Source of the DNA: Eledone cirrhosa | Lineage: Eukaryota | Direction of reading: 5' to 3' | NCBI GenBank assembly: GCA_964016885.1 | Contig: OZ024759.1 | Location: 4,092,001 to 4,156,000, forward strand | DNA length: 64,000 nt | Shown here: in pieces, positions 13,801-64,000 of the stretch | How the letters are laid out: every line of letters starts with the position of its first letter | How positions within the stretch are numbered: position 1 is the first letter of the stretch | Notes under the pieces: generated by a model | What the model saw: only the letters and a program-made list of their open reading frames with translations | Database searches by the model: none | Told to the model about the DNA's origin: nothing | Made by a program: the position numbers and the translations under genes

Positions 13801-14249
13801 CAACGTGCATCCAGGATACCATTCCAGTCCCCCACTAAAAGCAAGGAGCTGGACGTTCCCAGAAAAGTTTCCAGATGTTGGAAGTATTCCGGCCGTGCTG
13901 CCCAAAAAGGGGCGTACGCAGCAATTAGTCTAAGGGCTCCACTTTCACTACTGCCGACTTCTAAAACCACCAGTCGACCCTCCGGGTCCAGGTGCACCTT
14001 CTGTATGGTGAGGCTCAGGTATTTTCGCAGCAGAACGACAACTCCACCCCCACCCCCCGGTTGACAGAGAGATGCGAAGATCTCAAAGTCGTCGAAGAGG
14101 GGCGCCAGTTGGCGCTCGCTGCTGATCCTGGACTCGCAAATAGCCATTACATCCATTCTATGCGACCTGAGATCGTTTAAAAGTTTGCCTTGTTTCCAAG
14201 ACAGTCCCAGGCCGCGTACATTCAGACACCCAACTCTTATATCAGCCAT
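10845..14249 (-). pseudogene. Tx1-like ORF2 (APE endonuclease + reverse transcriptase + zf-RVT) with stops and frameshifts
   Basis: Motifs CLNVRGL, ICESR, VGDWN, LDRIL, YSDHK; KSPGVDGLPYE; LDQSKAFDRVDH, QGCPLS, AYADD; CPRC...HAFVHC. Split over ORFs 13041-14249, 12711-13007, 11281-12666 and 10845-11414. Confidence 0.9.
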
Positions 14250-14254
14250 GTTGG

Positions 14255-16018: not shown

Positions 16019-17114
16019 TTCTATCAGTTTGCCGTAATAAATTTTTAAAAGGAAAATTCGCCCCAAAAAGGGGCGAAAATAAATAAACTCAAAGTTTGAC
16101 AACCAAGGCAAGGGGTTAACGTATATTACAGTATAAAAAAATTAATCAAAACTCACTTTTGAGTAAGTAAATCCAACTCGGTAGCCGAGCTTGTTCACAC
16201 ACGTCAACACACGTCTCTCGTATACGAGATGTTATGTGAGATATTATGTGAGGTAAAGCCTTTACTGTGAAAATACAATAGTATATATAGAGTAATGTAA
16301 ATGTTATGTGAGATATTATGTGAGGTAAAGCCTTTACTGTGAAAATACAATAGTATATATAGAGTAATGTAAAAGCTATGTGAGATATTATGTGAGGTAA
16401 AGCCTTTACTGTGAAAATACAATAGTATATATAGAGTAATGTAAATGTTACGTGAGATATTATGTGAGGTAAAGCCTTTACTGTGAAAATACAATAGTAT
16501 ATATAGAGTAATGTAAATGTTACGTGAGATATTATGTGAGGTAACGCCTTTACTGTGAAAATACAATAGTATATATAGAGTAATGTAAATGTTATGTGAG
16601 GTATTATGTGAGGTAAAGCCTTTACCACAAAAATACAATAGTATATATAGAGTAATGTAAATGTTATGTGAGGTATTATGTGAGGTAAAGCCTTTACTGT
16701 GAAAATACAATAGTATATATAGAGTAATGTAAATGTTATATGAGGTATTATGTGAAGTAAAGCCTTTACTGTGAAAATACAATAGTATATATAGAGTAAT
16801 GTAAATGTTATGTGAGGTATTATGTGAGGTAAAGCCTTTACCACAAAAATACAATAGTATATATAGAGTAATGTAAATGTTATGTGAGAGATATTGTGAG
16901 GTAAAGCCTTTACTGTGAAAATACAATAGTATATATAGAGTAATGTAAATGTTATGTGAGGTATTATGTGAGGTAAAGCCTTTACTGTGACAATACAATA
17001 GTATATATAGAGTAATGTAAATGCTAAAGAGTTAAAACATAACTTAACAAATGTTCTTACATAAAGTTAGGATAGAAGGTTTTAAGATAGTTATAAACAT
17101 TTTATCATAAACTA

Positions 17115-23132: not shown

Positions 23133-23317
23133 ATTGTTTCTACTTTTGGCACAAGGCCAGCAATTACACAGTTCATTACTGGTACTTTATTTTATCGACC
23201 CACTAAGGATGAAAGGCAAAGTTAACCTTGACGGGATTTGAACTCAGGCCGTAAAGGGACATAACTATGCTGGAAAGCATGGCGTCCGACCCTCTACTGA
23301 TACTGTCAATTCACCGC

Positions 23318-23320
<3 letters not shown>
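23133..23320 (-). mobile_element. Family-A SINE
   Basis: Full head-to-tail match to the other family-A copies. Confidence 0.85.
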
Positions 23321-23387
<67 letters not shown>

Positions 23388-23509
23388 CTCACTCTTCGTG
23401 CGGCTGTTACTTAAATATAAGTATGTATACGTACATACATATATGTATACAGGCGTACAGTAGTATGTATATATATATACATACATGCACACATATATAT
23501 ATGTACGTA

Positions 23510-26500
23510 TGGCACTCAATGACAATGTCACAGATAAAGACAAATTCACCTCCTGCTGCAAGACGAGAATACAAGGACCCCTCTTTATTTCAGACACAGA
23601 TGACCAACAAAATCCCGTCTCCCACACCCCTCCCTGCCCCTCCAACCCATCCATCCCACCCTCCCAACTTCAGAGTTGGTACCATGAACGTAGGCACATT
23701 GAAAGGTCGCTCAAATGAGGTTGTAGAGATGCTTGAACGTAAAGAAGTTGATGTTTGTTGTATTCAAGAGACTAGGTGGAGAGGGGGATCTGCCAGATTC
23801 ATCGTTGGTAAAAAACGATGCTATAAACTTTTCTGGGTGGGAAATGACAACGGACAGGGTAGTGTAGGAATTATGTTAGCTGAAAAATGGGTAGATAAGG
23901 TAATGACGTAAATATAGTGAATGACAGAATAATTGAATTAAGACTAGTTCTAAATAGAATTACTGTGACAATAATATCCGCTTATGCACCCCAATCTGGT
24001 CTACCTGATGTTATAAAGGACAGGTTCTATGAGATGCTAATGCACACTACCTCCCAAATAACCGACAGCGACTACTTAATTATTGCTAGCGATCTAAACA
24101 GTCACGTTGGACAACATAGTGATGGCTATGATGGAATTCATGGAGGCTATGGGGTTGGAAATAGAAATGAGGAGGGTTTCAGAATCCTGGAATTCTGTGA
24201 TGCAAATAGCCTAACTATATGTAACACAAACTTCAAAAAACGTGAAAACCACTTGATCACCTATAGATCAGGGGAACACGCCAGCCAGATAGATTATATC
24301 TTACTAGAAGACGGGACAAAATGTCTGTTGTAAACTCTAAATCCCTCCCCCGTGAAGAATGCCCCTCCCAACATCGCCTAGTAGTTAGTGACCTCATAGT
24401 CAGGAATAGACGTACTCGACTACAGAGGAGGCCTACCTTGAGGAGAAGAATATGGAAGTTGAAGGACCCCATAGCCAGTGACAAATTTAAAAGCTTATTA
24501 TTTGTTGCCTTTGACAATAAGGAAGAGCAATTAGAGACGTGCAATAGAGAGGAACAGTGGCAATTCTTGAAAGTGAACCTGCTGAAAGCAACGGATGAAA
24601 TCTGTGGCTGGAGCAGACCTATTGGCAGGAGGAGAGTAACTTGGTGGTGGAACAGTGAGGTGGAAGAGACAATCAAGGGCAAAAAGCAGGCTTGGAAAGA
24701 ATGGGAGGATGGGGGGAAGTAGAGAGCACTATCAAGTGGCCAGGAGAGAAGCTAGGAGACAAGTGTACCTTGCAAAAAGGGTAGCAGAGGATAGAAAGTT
24801 CAAGCATGTTCTGCAACGTGAGGACCAAAAACGTGAGGTGTTCAGGATTGCTAGACAATGTGTCAAGGAAAACCGTGATATTGTCGGGGAGAAGTGTGTC
24901 CGTAATGATAATGGTGTACTTGCGCTCACTGATACTGATAAGCCTGGAAGTGTCACTACGAGAGACTATTAAATGAGGAGAAAAAGTGGGAAAAAGATAG
25001 TCTGCCCCAAATCGATCCAATGGTGCAAGGTAAAGGTAGTATAATAAGTAAGGCAATCAAAGATATGAAGACAGGCAAGGCAGCTGGGCCTTCGGAGGTA
25101 GTTGCTGAGATGTTGAAGGCATCTGGTATGGCGGGACACACTATGGTCACCCGTATAGTTAACCAAGTAATACAGAATGGGGTCATACCGAAAGACTGGC
25201 GTAGCAGCATCATCATTAACTGCTACAAGGGTAAAGGGGATGCTCTAGATAGGGAAACTATAGAGGCATTAAGTTAGTTGACCAGGTCATGAAGGTCACA
25301 GAAAGAGTAATAGCACAACTAATCAGAGAGCGAATTGATCTAGATGAAATGCAGTTTGGGTTTGTGTCAGGTAAAAGTACCACAGACGCTCTTTTCCTTG
25401 TACGACAACTACAAGGGAAGTACCTAGCTAAAAGTAAACCCCTCTACTTAGCTTTTGTAGACTTGGAGAAAGCTTTTGACAGAGTCCCCCACTCCATTAT
25501 CTGGTGGGCTCTTAGAAAACTAGGTGTAGATGAATGGCTGGTGAGAGCTATACAAGCTATGTATAATGAAACAGTCAGTAAGGTTAGAATTAACAATGAA
25601 TATTGTGAAGAATTTAGTGTAAAAGTTGGCGTTCATCAAGGCTCTGTCCTTAGCCCCCTCTTATTTATTATTGCCCTTCAGGCTATAACAGAGGAGTTCA
25701 AGACCGGCTGCCCATGGGAACTCCTATACGCAGATGATCTAACGCTCATAGTTGAATCAATGGCTGAACTAGAGAAGAAATTCAAAACATGGAAGCATGG
25801 CCTAGAATCAAAAGGCCTTAAAGTTAACTTGTCTAAGACTAAAGTTCTAGTTTGTAGAAAGGAAAATAGGGCACCAGTCCCATCTGGGAAATGGCCATGC
25901 TCAGTGTGTAGGAAAGGAGTAGGCAGAAATTCCATTTTATGTCCCAAATGCAAAGTATGGGTACATAAAAGATGTAGTGGGATCACAGGTAAACTATCTA
26001 AGAACGTAGACTTTATATGTGGCCAATGCTCAGGTGCAATAAGTAGCAAGTGTCCAAAGGATACTAGCTCCTTCCATTGCCCAGATGGTTCTATAGAAAT
26101 AGTAGACACTTTCTGTTACCTGGGTGACGAAATCAGCAGTGGTGGAGGGTCTTCTGGAAGTATAGTAGCCAGAGTCAGAACGGGATGGAAAAAGTTCAGA
26201 GAGCTTATACCGCTGTTGGCCACTAAAGGTTTCTCTCTAAAAATGAAAGGCAGATTGTATGATGCCTGTATACGAACAGCAATGCTACATGGCAGTGAGG
26301 CATGGGCATTACGTGCAGAGGACCTGCGTAGGCTGGAAAGGAACGAAGCTTGCATGCTCCGTTGGATGTGTAATAGTAATATGCGTGAACAGCAAAGCAT
26401 ATATGAACTAAGTGAGAAATTAGGAATAAGAGGGATCAGATGCTGTTTACTTGAGAGAAGACTACGTTGGTATGGCCACGTGATGCTCATGAAAGACGTC

Positions 26501-27050
26501 AGTTGTATAAAAAAGTGCAGGGCGATCAAAATTGATGGTAGTTACGGAGTAGGTAAACCCAGAAAAACCTGGGATGATCTGATAAATTCCGACCTTACAC
26601 ACTTACATCTCTCTAAGTCAATGTCTCTGGGCCGAGATCTTTGGTGCTATGCAGTAATACAGAAGACCCGCCTTGCCTATGCACAAAGCGAAACCTACAG
26701 TCAGTAGGCACCTCTTAACCAAATATACACCCCAATCTACTACCCCTACCCTATCCTCCCACTCCCACCAACAGCATGAGAAAATGAAATCGAGTTTGTG
26801 TAGGTGTCACGGAAAAAAAAACACACAGTCCACGCTGTAATGTGGTCGTGTAGGTGACACGGTAAAAAGTTCCCAGTTCCACACTGTAAATGTGGTTGGT
26901 GTTAGGAAGGGCATCCAGCCGTAGAAAAAGTTAGTTCTATATGAGTGAGACACGGTCACCCGACCAGCCTTGCCTCAACTCCCGTCTAACCCATGCTAGC
27001 GTGGAAAATGGACGTTAAACGAAGATGATGATGATGATGATGATGATGAT
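23510..27050 (+). mobile_element. Near full-length RTE-clade LINE (APE + RT + PHD-like finger), frameshifted
   Basis: [33 protein letters not shown]; FVDLEKAFDRVP, HQGSVLSP, LLYADD, FCYLG, RLRWYGH; (GAT)n tail at 27024-27050. Confidence 0.93.
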
Positions 27051-27520: not shown

Positions 27521-30500
27521 TATAACGGCGGCGAAGATTGGAAACCGAATCTGAGCTTTCCCACCTCTGGGACAAGCCGTGGTAAGTTGTTTACGCTCAA
27601 GAGACTAACCCCTGGGGGATGTTAAACACAGGTCAGAGGTGTTTAAGCCTGACAGAAAATAGGTCAGAGGATATATCCATCTTTCTGAGTTGTTTACGCT
27701 TGGCAAAATAATCCCTTGGGAGACTCTAACCAAAGTTCAGAGGATATATCTATCCTTCTAACTTCAACTCTTATAAATACAGGGGTTGTTTACGCCCCGA
27801 CAGAAAAGAAGTGATATACAGACAACACAAGTGGCCTTTACAAGCTCTCGTCACGAAATACCAGTCCGTCACTAATTTCCACTCCTGCCTGGCTGATCGA
27901 TACAACCACATATTCCGTTACAACTGGTGACCCCGTAAAACAGACACACAACTTCTGATCATCCACTACAAACGATGTCTCTAGCACACGACGATTCATC
28001 TACAGCAGAAATGGCAGTGAGGGCGGCATTTACATTAAGAATTCCACCATTCTGGGTGCACGATCTAACACTGTGGTTCGCGCACATCGAAGCGCAGTTC
28101 GCATAATAACACACGGCCCACCTGTTGCTGCACGACCTAGAAGGCTACCACCAGACCGGCTGAAGTCCGTCAAACAAGAATTTCAGCACATGCTGGATAT
28201 CGGCATCATACGTCCGTCCAGCAGCAACTGGTCCTCACCCATACACTGTGTACCCAAGAAGTCGTCAAACGACTGGCGAATCTGTGGCGACTACCGTGCA
28301 CTGAACAACTGCACCGTTCCTAACTCTTATCCAGTGCCTCATCTACAGGACTTCTCTAGCTCGCTGCACGGGGCTCGCATATTTTCGAAGATCGATCTTG
28401 TGCGAGCTTACAATCAGATACCCGTTGAGCCCGCAGATATTCCAAAGACCGCCGTCACAACACCCTTTGGAATGTTCGAATTTCTGCATATGCCTTTCGG
28501 TTTGCGAAATGCAGCGCAAACATTCCAGCGATTCATCGATACAGTCACCAGGGGTTTACCTTTTGTATACGCATACATTGACGACTTACTGGTGGCCAGC
28601 AGCTCCCACGAAGGACATGAGAAACACCTGGATCTCCTATTCACACGTTTGCGTGAATATGGAATTGTTATCAACCCCAGCAAATGTGAGTTCGGAGTTG
28701 CGTCCCTTCATTTTCTGGGACACATCATTGACAAAGATGGTATTCGCCCACTTAAGGAGAAAGTCAAATCCATCATTGATTTTCCACAACCTATATCTCT
28801 CCGCAAACTGCGAGAATTTCTTGGCCTGGTAAACTTCTACGGAAGATTTATACCCCACTGTGCAGAGACAGCCCAACCACTCACAGATTTGCTGCGGCAG
28901 CGTACAACCAAAAACGCAAACATCAAGCTCAGTGAAAAAGAATATACCGCTTTCGCTGAGTTGAAGAAAATGTTGTCCGAGGCTACAATGCTGAGTTACC
29001 CCAAACCTGACGCCCCAATGTGTTTATTGACTGATGCATCCGATTTCGGAGGTGGAGGTGTGCTTCAACAACTCTCTGGCGATATTTGGCGACCTGTATC
29101 TTTTTTCTCTAAGCGATTAAAACCCGCTGAAACTAAGTACAGCACATTCAGTCATGAATTATTGGCAGCATACCTTGCTGTCAAGCATTTTCGACACATG
29201 CTAGAAGGTCGTGTGTTCTCTATATACACCGACCACAAACCACTAGTGTACGCGTTCAATGCCAAGCCTGACCGACACTCACCCAGGGAGGTCCGACATC
29301 TGGACTTCATTTCTCAGTACACTACTGATATTCGGTACATTAAGGGTGCCACCAACTCAGCAGCTTATGCCCTATCGCGCATGGAGCTTAAGGCAATCCA
29401 CACCACTGCCACTATCGACCTCCAGAAGATTCCAGCGGATCAACAGAATGACGAGGAACTGCTGCAACTCCGGAAATCATCCTTGAAATTGAAGGAATGC
29501 CCGCTGCCCTCTTCTTCGGGTTATATTTGGTCTGACATCTCCACAGGCCGCGAGCGCCCATACGTGCCCCGGAAACATCGACGCGACGTTTTCTCGGCAC
29601 TGCATTCTCTGGCACATCCTGGCGTCCGCGCCACGCAGAAACTGATGGTTGCCCGCTTTGTGTGGCCCAACATCAACAAGGACACCCGTGAATGGGCTAG
29701 GAACTGAATCGTGTGCAAGAAGACGAAAATTCACCGGCACATCAAAGCCCCGATCGGTTCTTTCGCAACACCTGATGCACGGTTCCAACATGTGCATATA
29801 GACATAGTTGGACCTTTGCGTCCTTCTCAAAACTACACTCAACTTCTCACCTGTGTCGACCGATTTTCTCGCTGGCCAGAAGCTTTTCCCCTGACGGATA
29901 TTACTGCGGAAACTGTCGCCAAAACGCTAGTGTTTCACTGGGTTTCGTGTTTCGGCACACCCGCGACCATCACTACGGATAGAGGACGTCAGTTCGATTC
30001 GAACCTATTTACCGAGCTGACTCGTCTCCTCGGGTGCAAACGCATCCGTACAACAGCGTATCACCCTGCCGCTAACGGCATGGTAGAACGCTTACACCGC
30101 CAGCTAAAATCATCTATCAAGGCTTACGAAGACTCCACTAACTGGTTCGACTACCTCCCACTCATTCTTCTTGGTATTCGTTCCACTGTTAAAGAGGGAG
30201 TCGGACATTCTCCGGCTGAAATGGTGTATGGCACCGTACTCACTCTACCCGGACAAATGATCACTCCTGTTTCGCCACAAGAACTTCCAGACCCTACAAA
30301 ATATGTGCACCGTTTACGGTCATCAATGTCGCATCTGTCTCCTTCAGCCCCTAAACAACAGCACGTTACTTCACACATACCAAAAAGCATCGATACATGG
30401 ACGCATGTTTTCGTTAGAAATGACGGTATTCCATCGCAACTTCGTCCGCCGTATTCCGTCCGGGCCCTACAAGGTGATACAGAAATGCTCTAAGTATTTC

Positions 30501-32257: not shown

Positions 32258-32450
32258 TATCATGGCTTAGTGGTTAAAGCATTGGGCTTGCAATCTAAAG
32301 GTTGTGAGTTCGATTCTCGGACAGGGTGTTGTGTTGTGTCCTTGAGCAAGACACTTTATTTCGCGTTACTCCAGTTTACTCAGCTGTAGAAATGAGTTGT
32401 GATGTCACTGGTGCCAAGCTATATCAGTCATAACCTTTCTCTTGGACATA
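32258..32450 (+). mobile_element. Family-B CORE-like SINE
   Basis: tggcttagtggttaaagc head, gagttcgattc B-box and tgtgtccttgagcaagacactt core. Confidence 0.8.
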
Positions 32451-39591: not shown

Positions 39592-40255
39592 AAAATGTAA
39601 AATTTCCACTGTTAAATCTATCCCTGCATTTTAAGTATTCTCTATTATCTCATACTGTTACTTTCTTATAAGTCCTATAAGAATGCATTTTTTGCTAAAC
39701 TGCCATAGAGCAGACCTCTGAAATGATAGAAGGATATAATTTATAGAGCATGCTGGAATACCACTGCTTACATTGGAGAGAATTTCTCTGGACAGAATGT
39801 TGATATCTACAGTTTACCAATATAGAAATATAACATTTCCACTGTTAAATCTATCTCTGCTTCTAAAGTATTCTCTATTATCTCATACTGTTTCTTTCTT
39901 ATTTCAGAATATCAGATGACATTGGGATAAATTATTATTTTCAATCTTGGATACATCATCTCTATTTATCATCATTTGAAGACTAAAACCTTCTAAACAG
40001 AACTTATATAACACTGTTTATATAAATCTATAGTTCAATTACTGTGAAATATTTCCTCAAAACTGAGTTTATTTTCTTCACTATAAGATGGTTTTGTATT
40101 TTAACTAAACTTGGATGAAACAGAAGTTTGTATTATCTTCAGATATTAACTGAAATCACAGTTGAGGGAAATATAGAAGAATATTTTATAAGAAATATAA
40201 TATAAAAAATATTACAAGAAAAACATCTGTATATTCTGTTGAAGAAGAAATCATT

Positions 40256-40975
40256 ATGCCAAATAAATTGACAAAGAAGATTAAATGTGAAACACAATCT
40301 AAAGTGTTTAGTATTGCTGGTGAGATGACAAAGGTTAGAGAAGAGAAGCCATATCACTGTGATATCTGTGATAAATCATTCTCTCAAAGTGGTACCTTAA
40401 CTACTCACAAACGTATACATACAGGAGACAAGCCATATCACTGTGATATCTGTGGTATATCATTCTCTGGGAAAAGTAGCCTAACTACTCACAAATGTAT
40501 ATATGCAGAAGAGAAATCATAATGCATTGACATCAGTGATAAATCCTTCTCTCAAATTTGTGAATTAATGAGAATACAAATACATATCATTGTAACATCT
40601 TAGGGAAATCCTTCTCTTTGAATGTTACATTAACTACACACACACATATACATACAGCTGGGAAGCCATATCACTTTGATATATTTGGTACATCATTCTC
40701 TAAATGTTGTGGCTTCACTAGACACCAACATCTACAGGAGAGGAACCATATCACTGTGATGTCTGTGATAAATCCTTCTCTAAATGTTGTGGTTTCACTA
40801 GACACCAACATATACATACAGGAGAGGAACCATATCACTGTGATGTCTGTGATAAATCCTTCTCTAAATGTTGTGGTTTAATTAGACACTAACATATACA
40901 GGAGAGGAACTATATCACTGTGATGTCTGTGGTACATCTTTCTCTTATAAAGATTACTTAATGCAACACAATTAG
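40256..40975 (+). pseudogene. Decayed C2H2 zinc-finger gene
   Basis: Two recognisable fingers ([38 protein letters not shown]...) followed by stops and frameshifts in ~6 further fingers. Candidate acceptor ttatttcag at ~39907. Confidence 0.85.
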
Positions 40976-41059: not shown

Positions 41060-42700
41060 TTCATTTTATGTCTGTACAAACACAGTCTTCTCTCTTACAC
41101 ACCACTTCAGCTCACTCTTAAACCCAGCTTCTTCTTCAACTTGTCCAAGCTCTCCCTTTCTCTCACACTTACACAACATATCCTACAAAGCATGGTTGTT
41201 TCATATCTCTCCAGTCTACATAACCTCTGCAGTCACAGCCCTTATTTCGTTACCATGCATCATTGCATATCACCCACATGTGTCATACAGTTGTCCTTTT
41301 GTACAGAGAGAGAGAAACCTTTTGTGGTCAACTGTTGCAGTAGCTCTCTAAACTTTTTCCATCCTATCCTTATTCTAGCTATACATCTTTCAGAGCAGCC
41401 CCCTCCACTTCTAATTAACTCACCTAGATTGCAAAATATATTTGTCAGCATACTTTATGAAGGGTCTGTTTGGAAGTGCCTCGCCTAATAAACAATGGTG
41501 CCATAACTGGACTCAGAAACCAATGGTCACACATACATGGTAAGTTAGCTAAGAACGTAGGTTTTACATTGGTTCACTGCGCTGGAGAAGTAAGCAGCAA
41601 TCACGTTTAGGAGACAAGCTCTATCAAATATTTAAAGGGTTCCATAGAAGCAGTTGACAGTTTCTGTTACCTGGGGTATCAAATAAGCAGTGGAGGTAGG
41701 TGTTCTGAAAGTACAGTAACAAGAGTAAGAACAAGATGGCAGAGGTTTAGGGTGTTACTACTGCTGCTAGCTACAAAAGGTTGTTTCACCAAATTGATGT
41801 GTGCATATAAAGAGCAATGCTGCATTGCAGTGAGGACCCCAGAAGATTGGATAGAAATGAAGCTTGAATTCTCCGATGGATGTGTAATATTAATATACAT
41901 GAAGGGGAAAGTGTAAATAAACTGAGAGAGAACCTGGGCATGAGAGGGAAAAGATACAGTATGCAGGAGAGGAGATTGCTGTGGTATGGACATGTGATGT
42001 GTATGAAGGTAGAGATGCTGTATAAAAGGTTGACCACTTGAAATTGATGGAAGAGGAAGACCTAGGAATGCTTGGGATGTGGAGGTAAAAACTGACCTGA
42101 CACCATTGTACCTCTCAAAGGTGATGACACAGGATTGAAATCTCTGGCATTATACAGTACTGCAGGAGACCTGCATTCCCATGTGCACGGGTTGACACAA
42201 CATTTAGTGGTTTGAAGTATGCTCCAATTTTCCTCCCTTTCACATCTTAACACTCCACCCCCTTACCAGCTAAGTACACCACCCTGACCTACCTCTCCAA
42301 TCCCCACTCTACATACACACAACCCCACCCCCACTTTCACATCTGATACACCTCTCTTGACCAACCCATGTATACAAGTAAGGAAAGCTTAACATTATCT
42401 CCTCCAATGCTGCTGAAATGGCTAAAAGCCCTCAGGCAACCCTGTAAGGTGGTCATGCAGGTGTCATGACAAAAGAACACTGAGTCCTCTCTGTTAGGTA
42501 ACATGACAAAAGAACACCTAACCCTCCCTGCAAGGTAGTCATGCTGATGACATGACAAATAAGCACCCAGTCCACCCTGTGAGGTAGACATGACAGAAGG
42601 CCCCCTAGCCCACTCTGTAAAGTAGTCATGCTAGTGGCAAGACTGAAGGGACCCGAAGCACCCTTCAAAGTGATCAAATTGGTGACATGACTTGACACCA
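41060..42700. mobile_element. Old degenerate RTE fragments (minus 41060-41440; plus ~41530-42700 including modular 3' UTR repeats)
   Basis: FCNLG..SGGGCSE..GWKKFREL and FCYLG..SSGG remnants. Confidence 0.7.
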
Positions 42701-43728
42701 TTTTTTAGTTTACTTCTAAAATATCTCATTTTTATTTTACTTCTAAACTATCTCATATATTTAAAAATTACTTATTTTAAAAAATTATTATTTATTTCTT
42801 AAAAAAATTACTTTTTAAAGATTATTTAAAATTTTTTAATATTTTTAAATATTTTTTTAATATTTTAAAACATTTTAAGTATTTTATTTTGTTAAAAGGG
42901 TTTTTTGAGTATCTTCTGAGATTAAAAAAAAATTTTTTTTTTAATTTTTCCAGAAATTTTTTCCAGAACTTTTAATATTTTAATATTTTTAATATTTTTT
43001 AATTATTTAATATTAGAGTTATAACCAATAACTAATTCTGGCTATATATATCTTTCAACATTTATATCTTCGTCAAAATGGTCTCATACTAACTAATAAA
43101 TAAACAAAGCTGGGTTTTTCAGTATCTTCCTAATTTAAAACATTAAAAACATATAAATAATCTTATTAACTCAGTTAATTTAATTACTTACACTAAATAT
43201 AAACCAGTATCCCTCATAACTTATTAAAACAATTATCTATAACATGATATAGCCATTTATCCACTCATATATCTATTCTTCTATCTATTGATTCTCCTAT
43301 TTTCTACTTTATATCTATTTATTTTCAATTTATTATTCAATGTCTTTATATATATTTATTTTTTCTATATATCTATTTTTCTATATACTTATAATAGTAA
43401 ATATTATATTGTATTATATTAGAATTCTAACAATAATTAGTAAATATACGTAACATTAATATAAACGTAATACTTATTTACGTTACATGAGTTCATCCTC
43501 TATAAATGTCTTTCTTCTCTCTATCTCTCTATCTATCTCATAACAGTAATTTTTTTCTCTCTCTTTCTTCTCTTTCTTCCCTATCTTTCCCCAGCGTAAT
43601 TTAAATAAACGGTTGTTTTTTCAATTTTTCATACATTCATTTGCATATTCACACATAACTTTGAATTACCCCTAATAAGTTTCCCTTATCCAGCGAATTT
43701 CCGACCGTTATTTATAAAACAAATTTTG

Positions 43729-43793
43729 TATTTTATCTGATGAAAGAGCACCAAGATTGACTTGGTCGCCCTTGAAATATATATAATAAAATA
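43729..43793 (+). ncRNA. Type I hammerhead ribozyme motif
   Basis: tattttat CTGATGA aagagcaccaag attga cttggtcgccctt GAAA tatata TA ataaaata: 8-bp stem I, long stem II, palindromic stem III. Confidence 0.75.
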
Positions 43794-44160
43794 AATATGC
43801 AAAAGTTCTATTTAAATTGTTGGGATACAACAAGCAAATATGTTTATAACTGATATAAAGCACTCAACAAGTATTTGGAATAAACATACGATATTAACAA
43901 TCCTTTTGTATTTTATGTACTCAATTATATTATGTACTATATTGATTTATACTTCTCTCTATATGTGAGTATATATGTATATGTGTATATTGACATACAT
44001 GTACATGCGTTCTATGCATTTTTATGAATATATTGACATACATGTACATGCGTTCTATGCATTTTTATGAATATATGTCTGTCTGTATGTATGCATGCGT
44101 GACGCGAATCTACCAATTGGCCGAGGATGCACACACATGTATATATATGTATATGTAAGA

Positions 44161-46703
44161 TCTGGAAGCTGAAAGTCCCCTCAACCAGTAACAGATTTAA
44201 AGATATTTTACTCAACGCCTACGACAGTAAAGAAGAACAGATAGAGACATTTAACGTAGAAGAGAACTGGGAGTTCCTAAAAAATAACTTACTAGAGGCG
44301 ACGGATGAGGTTTGTGGCTGGAGTAAGACCTCAAGCAGGAGGAGAGTGACTTGGTGGTGGAACAATAAGGTAGATGAAGCAGTCAAGGCCAAGAGACAGG
44401 CATGGAAAGAATGGAAGAACGGGGGGAGCAGGGTACATTACATAGAGACCAAGAGGGAAGCTAGGCGACAAGTATACTTAGCTAGGAGGGAAGCAGAGGA
44501 TAGAAAATTCAAGCATGTTTTACAACGTGAGGACCAGAAACAGGAGGTATTCAAGATTGCGAGGCAGTGTGTCAGAGATAGTTGTGATGTCATTGGAGAG
44601 AAGTGTATCCGGAATGATAAAGGTGAGCTTGCCCTCACAAGTGCTGAGAAGAAAGATGCATGGAAGAGTCATTATGATAGATTACTAAATGAGGAGAATG
44701 CATGGGAAGAAGAGACCCTACCCCACGTAGACCCTATAGAGGGACCAGCAGTACAAGTCAGCGGCAGCGTAGTAAGTAAGGCAATCAGAGATATGAAGAT
44801 AGGGAAGGCAACCGGTCCATCGGGTATAGCTGCCGAGATGCTGAAGGCATCTGGGTCTGTAGGTCACACTATAACCACACGTATCATTAACCAGGTAATA
44901 CTAGAGGGGGCCATACCAAAAGATTGGTGCAGTAGCATCATTGTCAACTGCTACAAAGGTAAAGGCGATGCACTAGATAGAGGAAACTATAGAGGTATAA
45001 AGTTGATGGACCAGGTCATGAAAGTAACAGAAAGAGTTATAGCACAGCTGATTAGGGACCGGGTGAATATAGACGAGATGCAATTTGGGTTTGTACCAGG
45101 GAAAGGCACCACTGATGCGCTCTTCCTTGTGAGGCAATTACAGGAAAAGTACCTAGCTAAAAGTAAGCCACTCTACTTGGCATTTGTCGACCTTGAGAAA
45201 GCCTTTGACAGAGTTCCACGTGCAGTAATCTGGTGGGCTCTTAGAAAACTAGGAGTAGATGAATGGCTTGTGAAAGCGGTACAAGCCATGTATAGGGGAG
45301 CAGTCAGCAAAGTTAGGATTGGCAATGAGTATAGCGAGGAATTTAGCGTACAGGTTGGGGTCCACCAGGGCTCTTAGCCCTCTCCTGTTCATCATAGTCC
45401 TGCAGGCAATAACGGAGGAGTTTAAGACCGGATGCCCATGGGAACTCCTGTATGCTGATGACCTCGCACTCATAGCTGAATCTATGGTAGAACTAGAGAA
45501 TAAATTCCAAACCTGGAAGCAGGGACTAGAGAGAAAGGGCCTCAAAGTCAACATGACAAAGACTAAGGTCCTTATAAGTAGACGAGAAAACAGAACCCAG
45601 ATCCCCTCAGGGAAATGGCCTTGCTCAGTATGTAGGAAAGGTGTAGGTAGGAACTCCATTCTTTGCCCCAAATGCAAACAATGGGTACACAAGAGATGTA
45701 GCGGGATCTCAGGAAGCTTAATTAAGAATGTAGGATTCACATGCAGCAGCTGTGCTGAAACAGCAAGCAAACAGCCACAGGAAACAAGTACCACCAATCT
45801 CTGGGAGGGCCCTGTAGAAACAGTAGACAGCTTCTGCTACCTAGGTGACCGAATTAGCAACGGAGGTGGGTGCTCAGAAAGTACAATAACTAGGGTAAGA
45901 ACGGGATGGAAGAAGTTTAGGGAACTACTACCACTGCTAGCTGCAAAAGGCTTCTCCCTCAGAATGAAAGGCAGACTGTATGATGCGTGTATCCGAACAG
46001 CGATGTTGCATGGTAGTGAGACCTGGGCGCTGAAGGTGGAAGACTTACGTAGATTAGAGAGAAACGAAGCCTGCATGCTCCGATGGATGTGTAACAGTAA
46101 TATACGTGAACGACAAAGCATAAATGAATTGAGAGAGAGACTGAGCATAAGAGGAATCAAATGCTGCGTGCAGGAGAGGCGGTTACGCTGGTATGGACAT
46201 GTGATGCGTATGAAGGATGACAGCTGCATAAAAAGGTGCAGAGCACTAGAAGTTGATGGAAACCGCGGAGTGGGGAGACCCAAGATGACTTGGGATGAGG
46301 TGATAAAAGCCGACCTTACCCAACTACACCTCTCAAAGTCAATGACACACGACCGTGACTTCTGGCGTCACGCAGTAATACAGGGTACCCGACCTCCCAT
46401 GGGTACATGCTGAAGCATATAAACAATATGCCCCCCCCCCCCCACCGCAAGGTGGTCGTGGAGGTGCCACGGCAAAAAAGCACCCAGCCCACACTGTAAA
46501 GTGGACGTGTAGGCGCCACGAAAAAGCACCCAGCACTCACTGTAAATGAGGTTGGTGTTAGGAAGGGCATCCAGCTGTAGAAATCAAGCCAGATCAGTTC
46601 CTGTATGAGCAAGGCATGGTCAGCCGACCAGACACTGCCCACAACAGGACAACCCGTCTAACCCATGCTAGCGTGGAAGAACGGACGTAAAACGGTGATG
46701 ATG
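44161..46703 (+). mobile_element. 5'-truncated RTE LINE, relatively young (one frameshift at ~45370)
   Basis: ORFs 44127-45377 and 45319-46413 carry RT motifs; (GAT)n tail; TSD atgtaaga at 44153-44160 and 46704-46711. Confidence 0.95.
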
Positions 46704-47487
46704 ATGTAAGAATTGTGTGTGTACATGTACATGTATACCCATACAATTTGATTGCAGATAGACATTACTAACAGCCATAAATGCATACCAGCTAATCTTA
46801 TATATTTATATATATATATTAAAAACATTTTTTATAAAAAATATTTTATTTAATGACACAAAGGATGGATAACATTAAATTAAAAATTCATTTATGCTTT
46901 GTATGTATATATTATATACGTGGTTAGATATGGTGTGTATTTTGTGAGTGTGTGTGTATATATATATATTTATGTGTATTTTTGCGTGTGTGTACGTGTT
47001 ATATGATATGTAGTTCTCTAGCAATATATAGATTTCTTAATGTTTAGATTCCAAGTTTTAATATATTGATCTCAATTTTTAAACTAAATATCTAATCATA
47101 GTTAAACAATGATTAATTTCTCATATTATGTATGTATATTCCATTCATGATTATTAATATTTCTAATTTTATTTATTCATTTCATCTCAATTGTTAAGTT
47201 AACTTAATATGACATGACTTAATGTGTTCATTCTTTCCCCCTCTCTCTATCTCTATATTTTTGTCTCTGTCTGGTGTTTTGATATATCTCTCTCGTTTTT
47301 CTCTCGTTTTTCTTTCTTTCTTTCTCCCTTTTCTCTCTCTCCGTCCTTTTCCTTATCTGTAACACTACGACTTATTTTAAAAATACTAATATAAGTAAAC
47401 AACTCCACTATCCCTGAGTCTTCCAAAAGTAACGGTTGCATTTTGTAAGGGTATGTCAATATTTATTTATAAAACTGTTATATATTG

Positions 47488-47552
47488 TATTTTGTCTGAT
47501 GAAAGCATACCATAATTTAACATGGTATCCTCGAAATATGTATAATAAAATA
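47488..47552 (+). ncRNA. Type I hammerhead ribozyme motif
   Basis: tattttgt CTGATGA aagcataccat aatttaac atggtatcctc GAAA tatgta TA ataaaata. The first stem II pair is mismatched (A-C). Confidence 0.65.
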
Positions 47553-47620
47553 GATATGGTTTTATAAATATAGTTTCCATTTGTTAATATCGTATAATAA
47601 AATAAATATAGTTTTATAAA

Positions 47621-48000
47621 TCATCATCACCGTTTTACGTCCGTTCTTCCATGCTAGCATGGGTTAGACGGGTTGTCCTGTTGTGGGCAGTGTCTGGTCG
47701 GCTGACCATGCCTTGCTCATACAGAAACTGATTTTGGCTTTTCTACAGCCGGATGCCCTTCCTAACACCAACCTCATTTACAGTGAGTGTTGCGTGCTTT
47801 TTTCCGTGGCGCCCACACGTCCACTTTACAGTGTGGGCTGGGTGCTTTTTCTGTGTGGCACCTCCACGACCACTTTGCAGTGGGAGGGTGTGGGGGCATA
47901 TTGTCTATATGCTTCATCTTGAACCCATGGAAGGTCGGGTACTCTATATTACTGCGTGACGCCAGAGGTCACGGTCGTGTGTCATCGCCTTTGAGAGGTG
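47621..48000 (-). mobile_element. RTE LINE 3' end fragment
   Basis: Reverse complement of 46325-46703, with an (ATC)n tail. Confidence 0.9.
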
Positions 48001-48003
48001 TGT

Positions 48004-48040
<37 letters not shown>

Positions 48041-50072: not shown

Positions 50073-50462
50073 ATAAATTAATAAAATAATGAATAAACAA
50101 AGAAACAGTTCTTTATATTAAAAAAATTCATCATTTTACGATCGTTTCTAGGATATATATGTGTTAGAGTTGGTATGCATATTCTATAGATCTATGTACA
50201 ATATTTATAAAAACTATCAGAGGGAATATACATACCTACACATATATATGCTGTCTTCAGAAATAATATTATTTCTGAAGACATCATATATATGTGTAGG
50301 TATGTATATTCCCTCTGATAGTTTGTATAAATATTGTACATAGATCTATAGAATATGCATATCACCTCTAACACATATATATCCTAGAAACGATCGTAAA
50401 ATGATGAATTTTTTTAATATAAGGAACTGTTTCTTTGTTTATTCATTATTTTATTAATTTAT
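50073..50462. repeat. ~390-bp spacer-less palindrome
   Basis: Arms are near-perfect reverse complements about the centre gaaataat|attatttc (50267/50268). Mirror ORFs 50161-50343 (+) and 50192-50374 (-). Confidence 0.95.
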
Positions 50463-55848: not shown

Positions 55849-58800
55849 CTAGCTGACGTACCTAGCTTCGCCCGGGTAAACAGATGATAAGAGAAGACAG
55901 GTAAAAGAGAAAATGTCTGTATTGGATGTTTGTCTGGTTACAGTGTGAGGCGAGTCCGTGTTGTCTGTGTGATACAAAAAAACAGTAAAAATAATCTTCC
56001 AGATATACCAGATTCTTCGTCGTGCGGTTTGTGCATAGTATATGAACAATTCTAGGTGCTCCCACCTAGAATAGTGACCTCTAGGAGATGGTTCCTCTTC
56101 TGCCTGACTGGAAAACGTGTATCATTGCATAGACGTGGTTGTTCCACGTTTCTCAAAAGGATGATGGAAGTTCCAATCTTTTATATTATATGTAGATATA
56201 GATATAGATAATTAATAAAAAAGATGTCCGTCAATGTAAAGAAGGTCCCTATTTACTTGAAATGGTTTATACAAATGCCAAATTAATATGGATATGGATA
56301 ACATGCTTATCTATAAGTGGTCAGCTATAATAATAAAACAACAAATTATATGACACAAAAATTTATTCAGTAATTTCCAGGCTCTTAGCCACTGAGTAAT
56401 AGACAGTCAATATTGCCCAGAGTTCAACTCGGGGAGGTGGCCTGGTTTGAACTCAAAATGGCGGATCCTTCTACTTCGAAAATAGAATCGTTTTTCAATA
56501 TTACTCTAGCCCTGGCCGGCCATAGGCACCAAACTTTTTGCCAGACTCAGCATATGATGAGGTTTTATTACCACTGCAATCAGAAGCGATAAATTTGAAG
56601 GCAATTTCTACCAATACTTGTTGGTTTTTATTGCTCATTATCGACAATAAATGACATTGGACATAAATGATAACTCTGCCAAAGCTCACAATACAAATGA
56701 AAGGAAACCAATGTCCGAATCATATACGTCGCTTATTGATAGCTTTAAAGATATGCATACATCAGCTCAAAGCTTCATTATAGACAATATTTAGGTTTGT
56801 TACTCTGTTAGTGGTATCAATTGCAAATTTTATACCATCAGGATCGCACACTCGAGATGCAGCAACATAGAGTTGCCCATGGCTGAATGCTGGATCATTC
56901 AAGTAGACACCGACTCGCTTGAAAGTCTGTCCCTGTGCCTTGTTGACAGTCATGGAGAAGGCCAAATTGACGGGAAACTGTCTCCTTTGCCAAATAAATG
57001 GCAGCAGATCTTCACTTGGTCTCAGCATGATCCTCGGAATGAGAACCGATTCCTCTCTGCCTGGGAGTTTAGCTTCTAAATCTCTTCCGTTAATCAATCT
57101 CTCAACAATCAATCTGGTACCATTGCAAAGACCCATTTTATGATTGATATTTCTAAGCAATATAATCGGCAAACCCTTTTTCAACCTCAAAATATGTGGG
57201 GGAAATCCGGGTATTTGAAGTGAATTCAGATACTCAGTCGGAACATCCATACTGTTCTGCTGATTAGGCTCCATTGCATACGCACTGACGGTCAACCATT
57301 CCTCTCCAGGAAACATTCCGGCTACTTGTGAATTTATTTCATCGACCGTTGTATTCGTATGAGTTAGAATAACATGTTCCGATATCCAGGAGATATTCTG
57401 CCAAAAAGCATTCAAATTAGGGAACACCCAGTCAATCAAGCCTTGGCGGTCCAGTGGCATGACCAAATGGTCTGGGATTCATACAGTCTGATTATCACCA
57501 ACGTGTGGCAATTCATCGTTTCCCAACTGCATCAACCATCGGCCGTATGTCTCAGCCTCTTCGTTTTGCCCGAACATAGGAAGTCGCATATTATCGTGTA
57601 ATCGCAAAACTCTGAAATGGCCCCACAACGGGGACTTTTTCAGACATGCATCGACAATTTGCGCTCTTTGAGCATTCCTAACAATTGGTAGCACCTGTCT
57701 GAAATCACCACCAACAACGATAGTCTTACCACTGAATGGCAGGTCACTACCGCAGATATCTCTCAAAGTTCTGTCCAATGCCTCCAGCAAATATCTGTGT
57801 GCCATTGGAGCCTCGTCCCAAATAATCAGAGACGTATTGCGTATAAGGCCCGCGAGTTCACTTTGTCCTGTAATATTACAGACACTCAACTCATCTGGAG
57901 CCAATGGAGCCTTGAAGCATGAGTGGAAGGTCCTTCCACCACTCAGCAAAGTGGCAGCGATGCCCCTGGTGGGCACAGGGAGAGCAATCTTCCTCTGAGC
58001 TCTGACTGCCGATAACATAGTGTTGAAACAGAATGTCTTTCCGGTGCCTCCTGGAACATCTATGAAAGCACAAAGTTGCTCATTAGTGGAAATCGAGTGG
58101 AGAGCGCCATCGACCAATTCTCTGTGAGATTGGGTCAACATTGGCATACGTTCATCCACAATACGTTGCTGTTCCAGTGGATCAAACTGGAATAGTTCCC
58201 TCCGATCGAGTGGCAACCGTCTAAGCTGCAATCTCATGTTCAATGCTAAGACACGTTGCCGCATTTCTTCATCAGGAATTGGCAAATTGAAATCTGTTAA
58301 ACATTTCAAATGAACTTCGAGCAGTTGCTCAATATTGAGCAAAACAATAGCCTTCATCAAATGTTCATCATAGACCTGAAGATGGTGCCTAAAATCATCA
58401 GCCATAATTCCCCAATGGCGTTCAAATAACTCTCTTGGATCGGCAGGATTGCAGAATCCTAGAATCGTGACAAACAACTGCCATATTCGAGCTGGCATCT
58501 GTGTTGTTCCTGCAGCTTCCATGGCGTTATTCCATTCAGCGTCATCCTGAAGGAGTCCCAGATGCTGACACACAGCCTGGTATCTTTTATATTCCACGCC
58601 ATTGATTGTTTTCAAATCAGCGAAGCTCTGTTTACCTCTCGAAAAATCACTATGCAACAGAATTCGGAGATAAAACACATCACCAGATGCTGGATGGACA
58701 TTACAAACCCGTCCAATAGTCATGAATCTCAACTTTTGTTTTCTATCATTCCATTTCTTTCCCTTCTTATCCCACGTATAGTGCGAAGGGAAATCGCAGT

Positions 58801-61690
58801 AGAGTTGCTTTTGATCCGGGTTCAAAGCATGTTCCCTATTATGCTTGAACCACTCAGTCAATTCCGTCTTAGGAGGTGGTGCGTTAGCAATTCTTTCTAT
58901 ACCTCTTCTACTGTCCTTAAAACAGACCATTTGCCTATTCTCTAAGTGAACCGTCAGTTTCTGAACGCTGTGTTTGCGTTCATTGAGATCAAAATCGAAC
59001 AATCTCCAGCAAGCTTCGCTAGATCCAATCGAGCGAACATCCTGGAACCTGCCAACTTCATCTCCTTGGTTCGCTTCCTCATTCCTGACATTCATCATTG
59101 CCCCATCATGACCTTTGTAAACATACTTGAATAGATATTTGCAAGCTTTCACTGAGCTACAAATTTCCACATTAATATGACAACGATATTTCATAATCAA
59201 ATATGGATTGTATGGCACAACCCATTGATTTGTAACCTGTCGACCGTTTACATTTTCGACCAAACCGCCATCGGCAGGCGACCGTCTTCTGTATGAGGGA
59301 TGAGCATCCCCATCATTCCAGGAAGTGTTCCTGACAAAAGATTTCGGAAAGTGCTTACTGCATTGGCCATTTTTCATGCAAGGCGCTTTCCGATTTGCCA
59401 CTCCGCATTGGTTGTGCACCATTGACTTTGCCACCAAGTTGCATAGTGCCTCATTCTCCGGCAGTTCAGCACACACAATGCTGTCGACATCCTCAGCACA
59501 TCACAATTTGCAATCTCTATGTAAAATGATCAGCAAATGTGCATGTGGCAATCCTCTTTTTTGGAATTCAATTACATATGTAAAAGCAACTATACCTCCA
59601 AAGATTCCCTCTTTTTCCACATCATCCATTATCTTTTTCAGATATCCTTTGAATACTCTTGCCACAATATCAGGACGGTCCTTTGGCTGTTGTCCTGGCA
59701 AAAGTGCATCCTTAATATCAGTCCATTCAGGATTGCATGTAACAGTTATAAACAAATCTGGCTTTCCAAACTTTCTGACAATAGCCATTGCATCCTGATA
59801 GCGAATGTTCATATATCTCGGGCCGCCGATGAACGACGATGGCAAAATGATGCGTCGACCAATTTGCTTGTAATTGGCATCATCGGCTGTTATCGCATCC
59901 TGTATATTATTATACAATTCAGCTCTGATATGTTGCTGATGTGTAGCTATATAATTTAGCCTTTGATTTTCGATCTTTGCGTATGCTATACAACAGTATT
60001 CCTGGAACAATCTGCTGGCTTGAAATAGCGCATTTCTCTGTTGATTCCTCTCGTTCAAATGGAACGCGTAAAAGTCGCGAATCGAATTATTGTGTCTATT
60101 GCCACCTCCCTGTTGATGCTGATTCTCATGATCATCTAAATGAACAGACATGTTCCATCCATTTTCACCTTTTGGGAATAAAAGAACATAATGCAATGGA
60201 TGGTATGTCCTATTTGACTCATTGATAGTGTTGAGACCACCATCTCTGCGATTGAGGGCGATATCTCTCGATCCAGGCTTATCGTCCATCAACACAGCAA
60301 CTTCACGAAATCCTTCGGGGGCATTATATCGCCGTTCGTGTTGATTCCTTGGCACTGCGTCAGCCTTAATCACCAATGTTTGTTGCTGAACATTCTGCAG
60401 TTCAGCCACCAACATGAAATCCATAACATAAGGATTACACTGTCTAAGCCATGATTGCAAATCATGGATCAAATCACTTAACCTTTGCCGTTCAAGTTCA
60501 GTTATATTTCCCGGCAACTTCATCCAACCGATCCTGATATCCTCCTCCGATTCACTATAATCTGGATTGTTAACGTAAATTTGAGCGAATCAAGGCCTCT
60601 CTCCTGGGGTAACTTCTAAATTATCGATACAATGATACAAACGGCATTGAATGACGACATTCGGTTGCCATGCTCCACTCTCAAACATCTCACTAACTCT
60701 CTGCGATGCTAAAGCTAATAAATTGTTAATTTGCCGCGAATATTTGCGCAGTAATCTACCTCGGTCTCATTGATCACCCCACATACTTAGTATTTTAAAC
60801 TCCGGTGACTCCCCATCATCCGGCATTCGCAAAGGTTCTAGTTGAACTGCTCCTTTGTGACAGCACATTGTGGTCCACGTCTTTTCGTGCCACCAAAGCA
60901 ATGCTCCACAATGTGGAGACCCTGGTCGTCCACCAATCTGACAGTGACACGGTTGCCATGATCCATTTTTAATATCATTCGTTCGCCTCTTTACTGGAAT
61001 GAGGAGCACTTTGCGACACATTCCCTGAACTTCTGTATTGCGCTGGCGCTGTTCAGCCAGCTCCTCTTCATCCACCGGAGCACGCCATTGCTGCTGAATT
61101 CTGGCCACCTGCTGATGATGCTCAGCCAGTTCGTTTTTCAACCATCGCAGCACTCCGTCGCCGCTGTAGTTCACTGTTTGATAAAGTCGAATTGCTTTTC
61201 TTATCAGTATTCATTTGGAGCAATTGTAAAAAAAAATGACACAATAATAAATATAAAAGATGTCCGTCAATGTAAAGAAATGTCCCTATTTACTCCCTTC
61301 ACAACTCTGTGTATGACAGACAGGCACACAGACAGATAAACTGCGCGGCGATTGTGGAACGTCACACGCATACACGCATGGAAACGCGCACACGCACACA
61401 AACTTACACACGCACACACTCACACATGTTGATAGTTTTTACTTTTTGTGGAACACTGCACGCACGCACACACACATAAACATACGCGCACATACATACA
61501 CACGCATACATGTTAATAGTTATTGAACACAGTGTTCACACTCTCCCCTCTCACTCCCTCATTGGCATTATGCATATTAATTTCAGTTTGGCGTCGTTGG
61601 GGTGGGCGGAGTCCTTTGAAACCTATGAACCAATGATAATCGAGAATTGTGACACACGGAATACTGACGTTCTTCAAATTAATAAATAGA
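55849..61690 (-). mobile_element. Near full-length Helitron
   Basis: a|TCtatttattaat 5' end at 61690; acccgggcgaagctaggtacgtcagCTAG 3' end at 55849; RepHel coding region inside. Confidence 0.93.
56762..61174 (-). pseudogene. Helitron Rep/PIF1 helicase (RepHel) with several stops and frameshifts
   Basis: GKPDLFITVTCNPEW, YVIEFQKRGLPHAHLLI (HUH), KYLFKYVYKGHD (Y2), PGGTGKTF, IIWDEAPMAH, GGDFRQVLP, RRQFPV..TVNKAQGQT, FSHGQLYVAASRV. Confidence 0.93.
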
Positions 61691-62482: not shown

Positions 62483-64000
62483 TCACCTTGACCGACCAGT
62501 CTGTCGGGCGTCCATTCGACGCCGCTGGTCACAGCACGCCGTCCATTCCTCTCCGTATTGTGCTTTCCTCATCCATGTAGTCCCAATCATATTCCTAAAA
62601 TTATCTGCCACCTTCATGGAGGCCTTCCGAGTGGTCGCTTCCACTCGCACGGGTACCACTCCGCAACTGCGCAGGTCCAGTGATTATCGGTGAACCGGGC
62701 GGCGTGTCCAGCCCATCTGAACTTGCTGCGTATATATTGCGCGATGACGTCCCTCACACCGGACTTCTGTCTAATGACTTCGCTCCTGATGTGCTCTCTC
62801 AACAAGATTCCTAGCATTGATCTCTCCATGGCTCTTTGAGCCGTTACCAGCCTCTGCTCTTCTCTCTTCGTTGTAGCCCAAGATTCACTGCCATATAACA
62901 TTGCAGGTAAAACTGTGCTATTGAAGGGGTTGGCGTGGGTGGTCTTGTCCAACCTCCCCTTGAGCACATCCCTTATGCCGCTGAACGCCTTCCATCCCTT
63001 ACTCTCTGCGAGATCAGCCTCTCAATGTATTGGCGCATGTTCACTTCTTGTCCTAGGTAGACGTATTCCTCCACCTCCTCTATTTCATCACCACCAACCA
63101 CCATTCGACCTGTTGGTACGTTGTCGGACCGCATGAAGTTCGTTTTCATGCTGTTCATCTTGAGGCCTACTGCAGAGCTTTTGATGTCGAGCTCCGTCAG
63201 CATGGTCTGAAGCCGATCCGTGGTTTCAGCGATGAGTACGATGTCATCAGCGAAACGGAGGTGGGTAAGTATCTCCCCATTGATGGTGACACCGCCTTGC
63301 CAGTCAATGCCTCTGATGATCTGCTCGAGACACGCGGTGAAAACTTTTGGAGAGATCGTATCTCCTTGCTTCACTCCCTTCTCGACCGGCACTCGTACGG
63401 GTGATGACAGCAGAGCTGTGTCGGTGGTGCATCCGGAATTCGCCTCCTTGAGCAGTTGAACGTATTCTGCCTCGACTCCTTGCCTCTGCAGCGAGTTCAG
63501 CACTGCGTTGATTTCGACGCTGTCGAAGGCCTTCTTGTAGTCTACGAACGCGACGCAAAGAGGCATCTTGTACTCTTTTGCTTGCTCAAGCAGTTGTGTC
63601 AGAGTAAATATGTGGTCCATCGTGCTGTAGTTCTTCCGGAAGCCGGCTTGCTCTTTCGGTTGCGGTTCGTCCAGATGATGTGATAACCTGTTCAGGATTA
63701 TCTTCGTGAACAGCTTGTACACGTGAGACAGCAGGAATATGGGTCAGTAGTTCTTCAGATCTTGTCTATCGCCCTTCTTTTATAGCAGGATGGTATTCGA
63801 CTCTTTCCACTGCGAGGGTATTCTTCCCTCGTCCAGATCGTGTGTGAATCGCTCGGCGAGGATTTTCCAGAGCTGTTCTCCGCCTGACTTCAACACCTCC
63901 GATGTTATTCCGTCTTTCCCTGGCGCCTTTCCGCTTTTCATTACACCGACGGCTCTTTCCACCTCACCGACAAGGATGGGTGGCACATTTTCTTCCTGTT
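62483..64000 (-). mobile_element. GC-rich RTE-clade LINE (second family), running off the right edge
   Basis: KAPGKDG, EQAGFRK..STMDHI, FVDYKKAFDSV, KQGDTISP, LRFADD, EYVYLG, VLPAMLYGSESW, FRWAGHAAR, RPLGRPP. Confidence 0.92.

Follow-up and report, generated by a model that had tools for sequence, protein, structure and literature searches.

Predicted Hammerhead Motifs of Two Nested, Truncated Penelope-Like Element Copies in Eledone cirrhosa

The Locus

The stretch analysed, hereafter the window, comprises 64,000 nucleotides of Eledone cirrhosa DNA (GenBank assembly GCA_964016885.1, contig OZ024759.1, positions 4,092,001 to 4,156,000, forward strand; coordinates below count from its first letter). 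Two hammerhead motifs lie on its plus strand, motif 1 at 43729..43793 (predicted cut after A43785) and motif 2, of subfamily B, at 47488..47552 (predicted cut after A47544). Both had been claimed in a preliminary description of this DNA and were recovered by direct inspection and with a structure-aware descriptor. Each has an 8-bp stem I, CUGAUGA, stem II, GAAA, and a palindromic stem III (ATATATAT in motif 1; ATATGTAT, with a G-U, in motif 2), and each is a type I hammerhead by its CUGANGA and GAAA core, NUH cut site, and three stems in type I order. The descriptor, which demands, besides the core, a stem II that folds, a stem III complementary to itself, and at least 5 bp of stem I, matched exactly these two motifs in the 64-kb window and nothing in 40 block shuffles; the loose core pattern alone stayed at chance level (9 window matches versus 8.9 expected). 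Including flanks, motifs 1 and 2 are 78% identical over 97 nt.

The description also had both stem II sequences pairing, which holds for motif 1 and, in motif 2, for all but the base, where an A10.1-C11.1 mismatch is found (also in other copies of the array described below, 9 of 27 with the window copy included). Both motifs have a fold of lower energy than the monomeric hammerhead (−11.6 versus −7.9 kcal/mol for motif 1; −8.5 versus −3.9 kcal/mol for motif 2). Scoring against Rfam Hammerhead_1 (RF00163), suggested as a check, recovered neither motif at cut-off (the model has 45 positions, and stem II of the motifs has 30 nt); a scan at an E value of ≤10 returned 50 hits with no hammerhead among them, and none of the 18 RF00163 matches in the genome (74 candidates scored) was on the window's contig. 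Those 18 matches sit elsewhere in the genome. Cleavage by related minimal hammerheads is weak and confined to dimers (parts of PMC4209133); each motif here is predicted to self-cleave no more than weakly, probably with the help of protein or as a dimer.

Motif 1 lies in element A (42709..43798, plus strand), which we assign to the 5'-truncated 3' untranslated region (3'UTR) of a Hydra-clade Penelope-like element (PLE) of subfamily A, broken at its hammerhead by element B. From 42709 it is 87% identical to locus L041 and 77% identical to L036, in both of which a Hydra-type open reading frame (ORF) ends 1.2 to 1.7 kb upstream of the same hammerhead type. Element B is bounded by a 17-bp target-site duplication (13 to 17 bp allowing for TA microhomology), whose left copy (43782..43798, plus strand) spans A's predicted cut site and whose right copy (47593..47609, plus strand) is followed by the remainder of A's tail to ~47619. 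Its left arm (43799..43900, minus strand) is a piece of ~100 nt in inverted orientation that reaches to the far 3' end of the family (E site); it consists of a 90-nt extension plus ~13 nt, is 94.5% identical to L104 2108-2217, and includes the first leader hairpin (R1; 43859..43881, minus strand), one stem position of which is a U-G wobble here. The main arm (43899..47596, plus strand) comprises ~1.15 kb of 3'UTR, stops at the near 3' end (S site), and is split by a LINE; its identity to L104 is 87.6% over 46704-47596 and 76% over 43899-44160, with one internal duplication. Public contigs exit into (TA)n at 47596 (22 in run X1 and 32 in run X2).

L042, a paralogous locus more distant than the array copies, matches 42000-43798 and then directly 47593-48019. 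It carries the 17-mer once, where the window carries it twice, and the DNA between is therefore an insertion, element B, into stem III/I of the older copy A. All 25 genome matches to the A|B junction are in array copies, so that the junction records one event; recurrent self-targeting of the hammerhead was considered and rejected on this exact junction. An older inverted 3' fragment of the window's LINE family in A's tail (47620..48001, minus strand) is common to the B-free L042. Joints between 43793 and 47554 in contigs from X1, X2, and X4 were not used as evidence, as these contigs do not span the locus and other family copies explain the joints best.

The LINE in B's main arm (44161..46703, plus strand), which we take to be of RTE type, is young and 5' truncated, with reverse transcriptase (RT) and PHD domains in two frames (Pfam RVT_1 and PHD), a (GAT)n tail, and an 8-bp duplication (44153-44160 and 46704-46711). 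It is present at this site in the window's array copy only, and the site is empty in 23 of 27 array loci, which confirms the insertion bounded by target-site duplications that had been described. Removing it had been said to leave the motifs ~1.2 kb apart, and they are indeed 1,133 to 1,249 nt apart in those 23 loci; this spacing simply reflects how long the truncated copy B is, and the true hammerhead-to-hammerhead unit measures 3.5 to 4.2 kb. Three array copies (L064, L069, and L070) carry a different piece of this LINE family inside B, inverted, 533 bp long, and independently inserted; these pieces are 99.4 to 99.8% identical to the window LINE, and the family is young.

The best 27 matches of each motif are copies of a duplicated block of ~100 to 130 kb on four contigs, 95 to 100% identical around the hammerhead site. 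The giant segmental array has at least 27 copies, mostly 100 to 130 kb apart (G000 C20:3.52-5.30 Mb, C27:13.08-15.44 Mb, C16:0.55-0.68 Mb, and C19:39.82 Mb). A decayed C2H2 zinc-finger gene lies at 40200-40950 (plus strand) of the window, and open zinc-finger ORFs occur in the paralogous loci L031 (17 fingers) and L042 (10 fingers); the array may be a zinc-finger cluster expansion. The order of events at the locus was insertion of A, insertion of the LINE fragment into A's tail (both common to L042), insertion of B into A's stem III/I, ~27-fold segmental amplification, and insertion of the young LINE into B of the window copy only. Because B landed in nonrepetitive DNA, the locus usefully exposes a 13- to 17-bp target duplication of the kind normally masked in (TA)n targets.

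The nested hammerheads might instead have been retained to direct 3' processing of the upstream zinc-finger gene of the duplicated unit. Element A does lie on the same strand as, and ~3.2 to 3.7 kb downstream of, the open zinc-finger ORFs of L042 and L031, and also downstream of the decayed gene in the window. We nevertheless regard such a role as very unlikely: one ancestral insertion has been carried along by duplication, such motifs occur about once per 52 kb of the genome, and the window's zinc-finger gene is broken.

The Hammerhead Family Across the Genome

A tight hammerhead pattern matched the genome exactly 21,647 times and a broader one 57,531 times, each versus no match in the reversed control. 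From nonarray loci, 88 or 89 distinct motifs were gathered, of which 45, hand-picked to span subfamilies, were aligned. RNAalifold predicted stems I and II unprompted from this alignment. With the palindrome added, 96.8% of cells were paired (35 to 68% in slid registers), and covariation was 0.400 versus 0.240 (0 of 500 shuffles, which ignore kinship). Compensatory, both-sided changes occur in all seven pairs of stem II and in one of the four pairs of stem III. Changes in stem I are one-sided only and constrained by the search pattern; stem I counts are partly circular because the pattern fixed much of that stem. The covariation among genomic copies that had been asked for as a check is thus present in stems II and III across subfamilies. 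Among the 88 distinct copies, stem III is self-complementary in 81 (the seven exceptions are singletons), H17 is A in every one, and the base of stem II (10.1-11.1) is A-U in 72, rather than the usual G-C. Further hammerhead families with a palindromic stem III were seen at L031 4556 (minus strand), L040 998 (plus) and 6178 (minus), L032 2989 (minus), L036 7755 (minus), and L038 2226 (minus).

The Element Family

The autonomous unit consists of a hammerhead, a 188-nt leader (cut site to ATG), a 743-amino-acid (aa) RT/GIY-YIG-type ORF, a 3'UTR of 1.5 to 1.8 kb, and a second hammerhead. Head-to-tail hammerhead-ORF-hammerhead arrangements were found in 4 of 14 long loci (L170, L172, L176, and L177), spaced 3.5 to 4.2 kb. 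Both hammerhead types lie 1.2 to 1.7 kb downstream of the ends of Hydra-type ORFs, and A-type hammerheads lie downstream of sister ORFs 66 to 70% identical to the 743-aa ORF; the 3'UTRs of subfamilies A and B are barely alignable. L104 bears an RT/endonuclease-type ORF, whose genome matches were 88 to 100% identical in all 82 cases scored, several with 738 to 816 stop-free codons within the match. An earlier suggestion of a family with no recognisable ORF left is right for the window copies, where tblastn with four family proteins found no match, and wrong for the family, which has many RT/endonuclease ORFs, some full length and open.

The 743-aa ORF carries RIRWR (an RWR variant of RWK), DKT, YRDD, CxCx5C, and CxxC..CxH and so matches the motif diagnosis of the Hydra clade (PMC8557442, section 11). 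The family further has a single ORF in which RT is followed by a conserved C-terminal GIY-YIG-type endonuclease domain, a (TA)n insertion preference, pseudo-LTR tandems, inverted truncated arms, and a one-sided tail. By motifs and homology, it is a Hydra-clade PLE. Pfam searches with pieces of the ORF found no RT in any of 10 and one GIY-YIG hit below threshold, and PDB sequence searches with the family ORF found no match; a structure model of the protein reached a pLDDT of 71.5. At least 921 of 8,000 database candidates scored are relatives (best identity, 38 to 44%), and the one named relative is from Argonauta hians. The family is very abundant, with tens of thousands of copies, and apparently unlisted in those parts of the published sets covered here.

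The ORF motifs, together with the hammerhead positions downstream of Hydra-type ORFs, bear out the expectation that type I hammerheads with a palindromic stem III would belong to a Penelope-like family. We are highly confident that the two motifs in the window are the 3'UTR hammerheads of two truncated Hydra-clade PLE copies, B inside A, with weak self-cleavage predicted for each. They are usual hallmarks of a PLE family, with self-cutting predicted, and not a new two-ribozyme unit; PLE 3' hammerheads are already known, the family is new within a known clade, and the nested arrangement arose by chance.

The preliminary description had read the pair as a candidate pseudo-LTR or retrozyme unit, and neither form of that claim survived. 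If the two hammerheads were the pseudo-LTRs of one ~1.2-kb nonautonomous PLE derivative moving as a unit, their shared strand, their homology, their spacing without the LINE, and the occurrence of the arrangement in 27 genomic places would be accounted for. All 27 places, however, are copies of one large, 95 to 100% identical duplication, outside which the A|B junction is found nowhere; the motifs come from subfamilies whose 3'UTRs hardly align; the DNA between them starts with an inverted arm; and the 17-bp target duplication and the empty L042 mark two nested insertions of different subfamilies. In the window, no 3' end occurs twice flanking an element body, and we consider a pseudo-LTR unit extremely unlikely. 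A non-LTR retrozyme yielding a small circular RNA between the two cuts is extremely improbable as well: type I hammerheads do lie in AT-rich DNA, and read-through of an RTE-free array copy would hold two predicted cut sites ~1.2 kb apart, but metazoan retrozymes are tandem repeats of ~170 to 400 nt (parts of PMC7229834), whereas the window has no such ORF-less tandem monomers with the same hammerhead, and its two hammerheads differ and each map to the 3'UTR of an ORF-bearing PLE.

Comparison With Known Systems

Comparisons refer to the parts of the cited sources that treat these elements. The Hydra clade of PLEs with a C-terminal endonuclease, including the octopus element Hydra-1_Obim (Craig et al. 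2021, PMC8557442), is alike in its single ORF with RWK-like, DKT, CxCx5C, and CxxC/CxH motifs and in its (TA)n targets, 3' type I hammerhead, partial tandems, inverted 5'-truncated arms, and one-sided tail. Published Hydra elements are generally shorter than 3 kb and have tails of 30 to 40 nt, versus 3.5 to 4.2 kb, with a 3'UTR of 1.5 to 1.8 kb, and a 90-nt tail in the family described here, whose hammerhead also differs from that of Hydra-1_oBim in its 8-bp AU-rich stem I, long bulged stem II, and even-length palindromic stem III.

The minimal hammerheads of PLEs (Cervera and de la Pena 2014, PMC4209133) resemble those reported here in being of type I, with a long stem II and a small palindromic stem III suiting dimers, and in occurring as many variant families per genome and as opposite-strand pairs 100 to 700 bp apart. 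The family differs from them in having a stem I of 8 bp, mostly A-U at 10.1-11.1, and no obligatory extra nucleotide after A9.

PAc, a Poseidon element of Anolis (Frangieh et al. 2024, PMC11167929), shares two fixed internal ends that define a tail, an AT-rich target, and copies extending past the hammerhead cut site. It belongs to another clade, and its starts are inside the ORF, in one stem-loop, and without target homology; in the present family, each presumed start precedes a hairpin copy of its own and shows UA microhomology, and the two are 90 nt apart within the leader.

Metazoan non-LTR retrozymes (PMC7229834; bioRxiv 10.64898/2026.07.22.740005) are alike in type I hammerhead, low GC content, and a link to PLEs. 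Here, in contrast, there is no short tandem monomer, and the hammerheads are in the UTRs of ORF-bearing elements.

Leader Hairpins and Copy Ends

Copies of the family run into (TA)n at one of two fixed ends, S at 48 nt and E at 138 nt beyond the cut site. With both ends beyond that site, the copies derive from RNA uncut at the 3' hammerhead, whose cleavage would then not set their 3' end. Head-to-head pairs combine one S and one E end in 16 of 16 classifiable cases (15 independent; three more were unclassifiable), and element B obeys this rule, with an E-ended short inverted arm and an S-ended long arm. An origin from uncut RNA agrees with PAc, in which RT starts at two internal sites in vitro, hammerhead mutants still insert, and cleavage needs protein (parts of PMC11167929).

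Both S and E sit just 5' of a conserved bulged hairpin (5-bp stem, 2-nt 3' bulge, variable upper stem, and RCU tail), and read-through copies show the repeated motif just 3' of both. A subfamily with 46% identity and a completely diverged spacer retains the twin motif, and the double motif was found at 615 genome places versus none in the control. Among six published Hydra consensuses inspected by eye (parts of PMC8557442), four carry the hairpin, the Hydra-1_Ajap leader having two copies. Its presence is doubtful in Hydra-1_Obim, and Hydra-1_Amil, a consensus that ends early, lacks it.

An independent test used 78 metagenome loci in 61 clusters, 44 of them with a leader of at least 80 nt. The hairpin was present in 39 of these 44 unrelated Hydra-type leader clusters, twice in 25 (antisense, 3); with only the longest member per cluster, it was present in 37 of 44, versus a shuffle mean of 0.26. 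It lay downstream of hammerheads in 16 of 21 metagenome cases. In 82 of 84, a C-G, U-A, or U-G pair sits above the 2-nt bulge, and in an alignment of 53 hairpins, 99.6% of cells are paired (0 of 500 shuffles). Where the leader is known, 9 of 10 copy ends were judged by eye to lie 2 to 7 nt before a hairpin (the exception is L219); two of these are contig ends, and L253 was left out as ambiguous. A pattern-free self-repeat test on five leaders gave modest support (1, 8, 18, 0, and 9 of 300 shuffles), the best repeat of L177 being another one, and a shuffle test demanding both hairpin cores was set aside as circular. Rfam had no family for the leader hairpin in five loci, and no published description of it was found, including in the sections, passages, and supplement parts of PMC8557442 covered here.

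The hairpin likely positions reverse-transcription starts. A DNA-level site in place of an RNA hairpin is a rival explanation because the four core pairs barely vary. In the mechanism we propose, the endonuclease would nick both strands of (TA)n-like DNA, which for B would be the AT palindrome in A's stem III. On RNA left uncleaved, RT would begin at two internal positions, both with UA microhomology and each lying a few nucleotides 5' of one of the conserved bulged hairpins. The resulting pair of internally primed cDNAs would be joined head to head; hammerhead cleavage would trim the 5' end of tandem transcripts. For the clade as a whole, we lean modestly toward a model in which Hydra-clade PLEs carry two copies of one hairpin between hammerhead and start codon, each docking an RT that starts a few nucleotides upstream, one per nicked strand, to give a two-armed insertion and a one-sided tail; the palindromic stem III may pair two RNAs for both arms and would itself be a (TA)n-like target of the element's own endonuclease, as in B into A. 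If the hairpin does position RT initiation, this telomerase-related RT would have an RNA signal common to the clade, and the long-noted PLE tail would be explained.

Other Features of the Window

A Helitron Rep/PIF1 helicase ORF lies in three pieces at 56762-60589 (minus strand), and LTR-type pol (RT, RNase H, and integrase) and further LINE RT/endonuclease ORFs lie at 27959-30493 (plus), 23255-26707 (plus), 11281-14270 (minus), and 62973-63743 (minus). Tandem repeats account for the long ORFs at 231-1849, 4874-6302, and 16146-17066, the last two of which share a unit. A partial tRNA-like match at 32263-32320 (plus strand), above the Rfam cut-off and not called by ARAGORN, is possibly a SINE head. 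A near-perfect 195-nt inverted repeat without a spacer (97% complementary) lies at 50073-50462.
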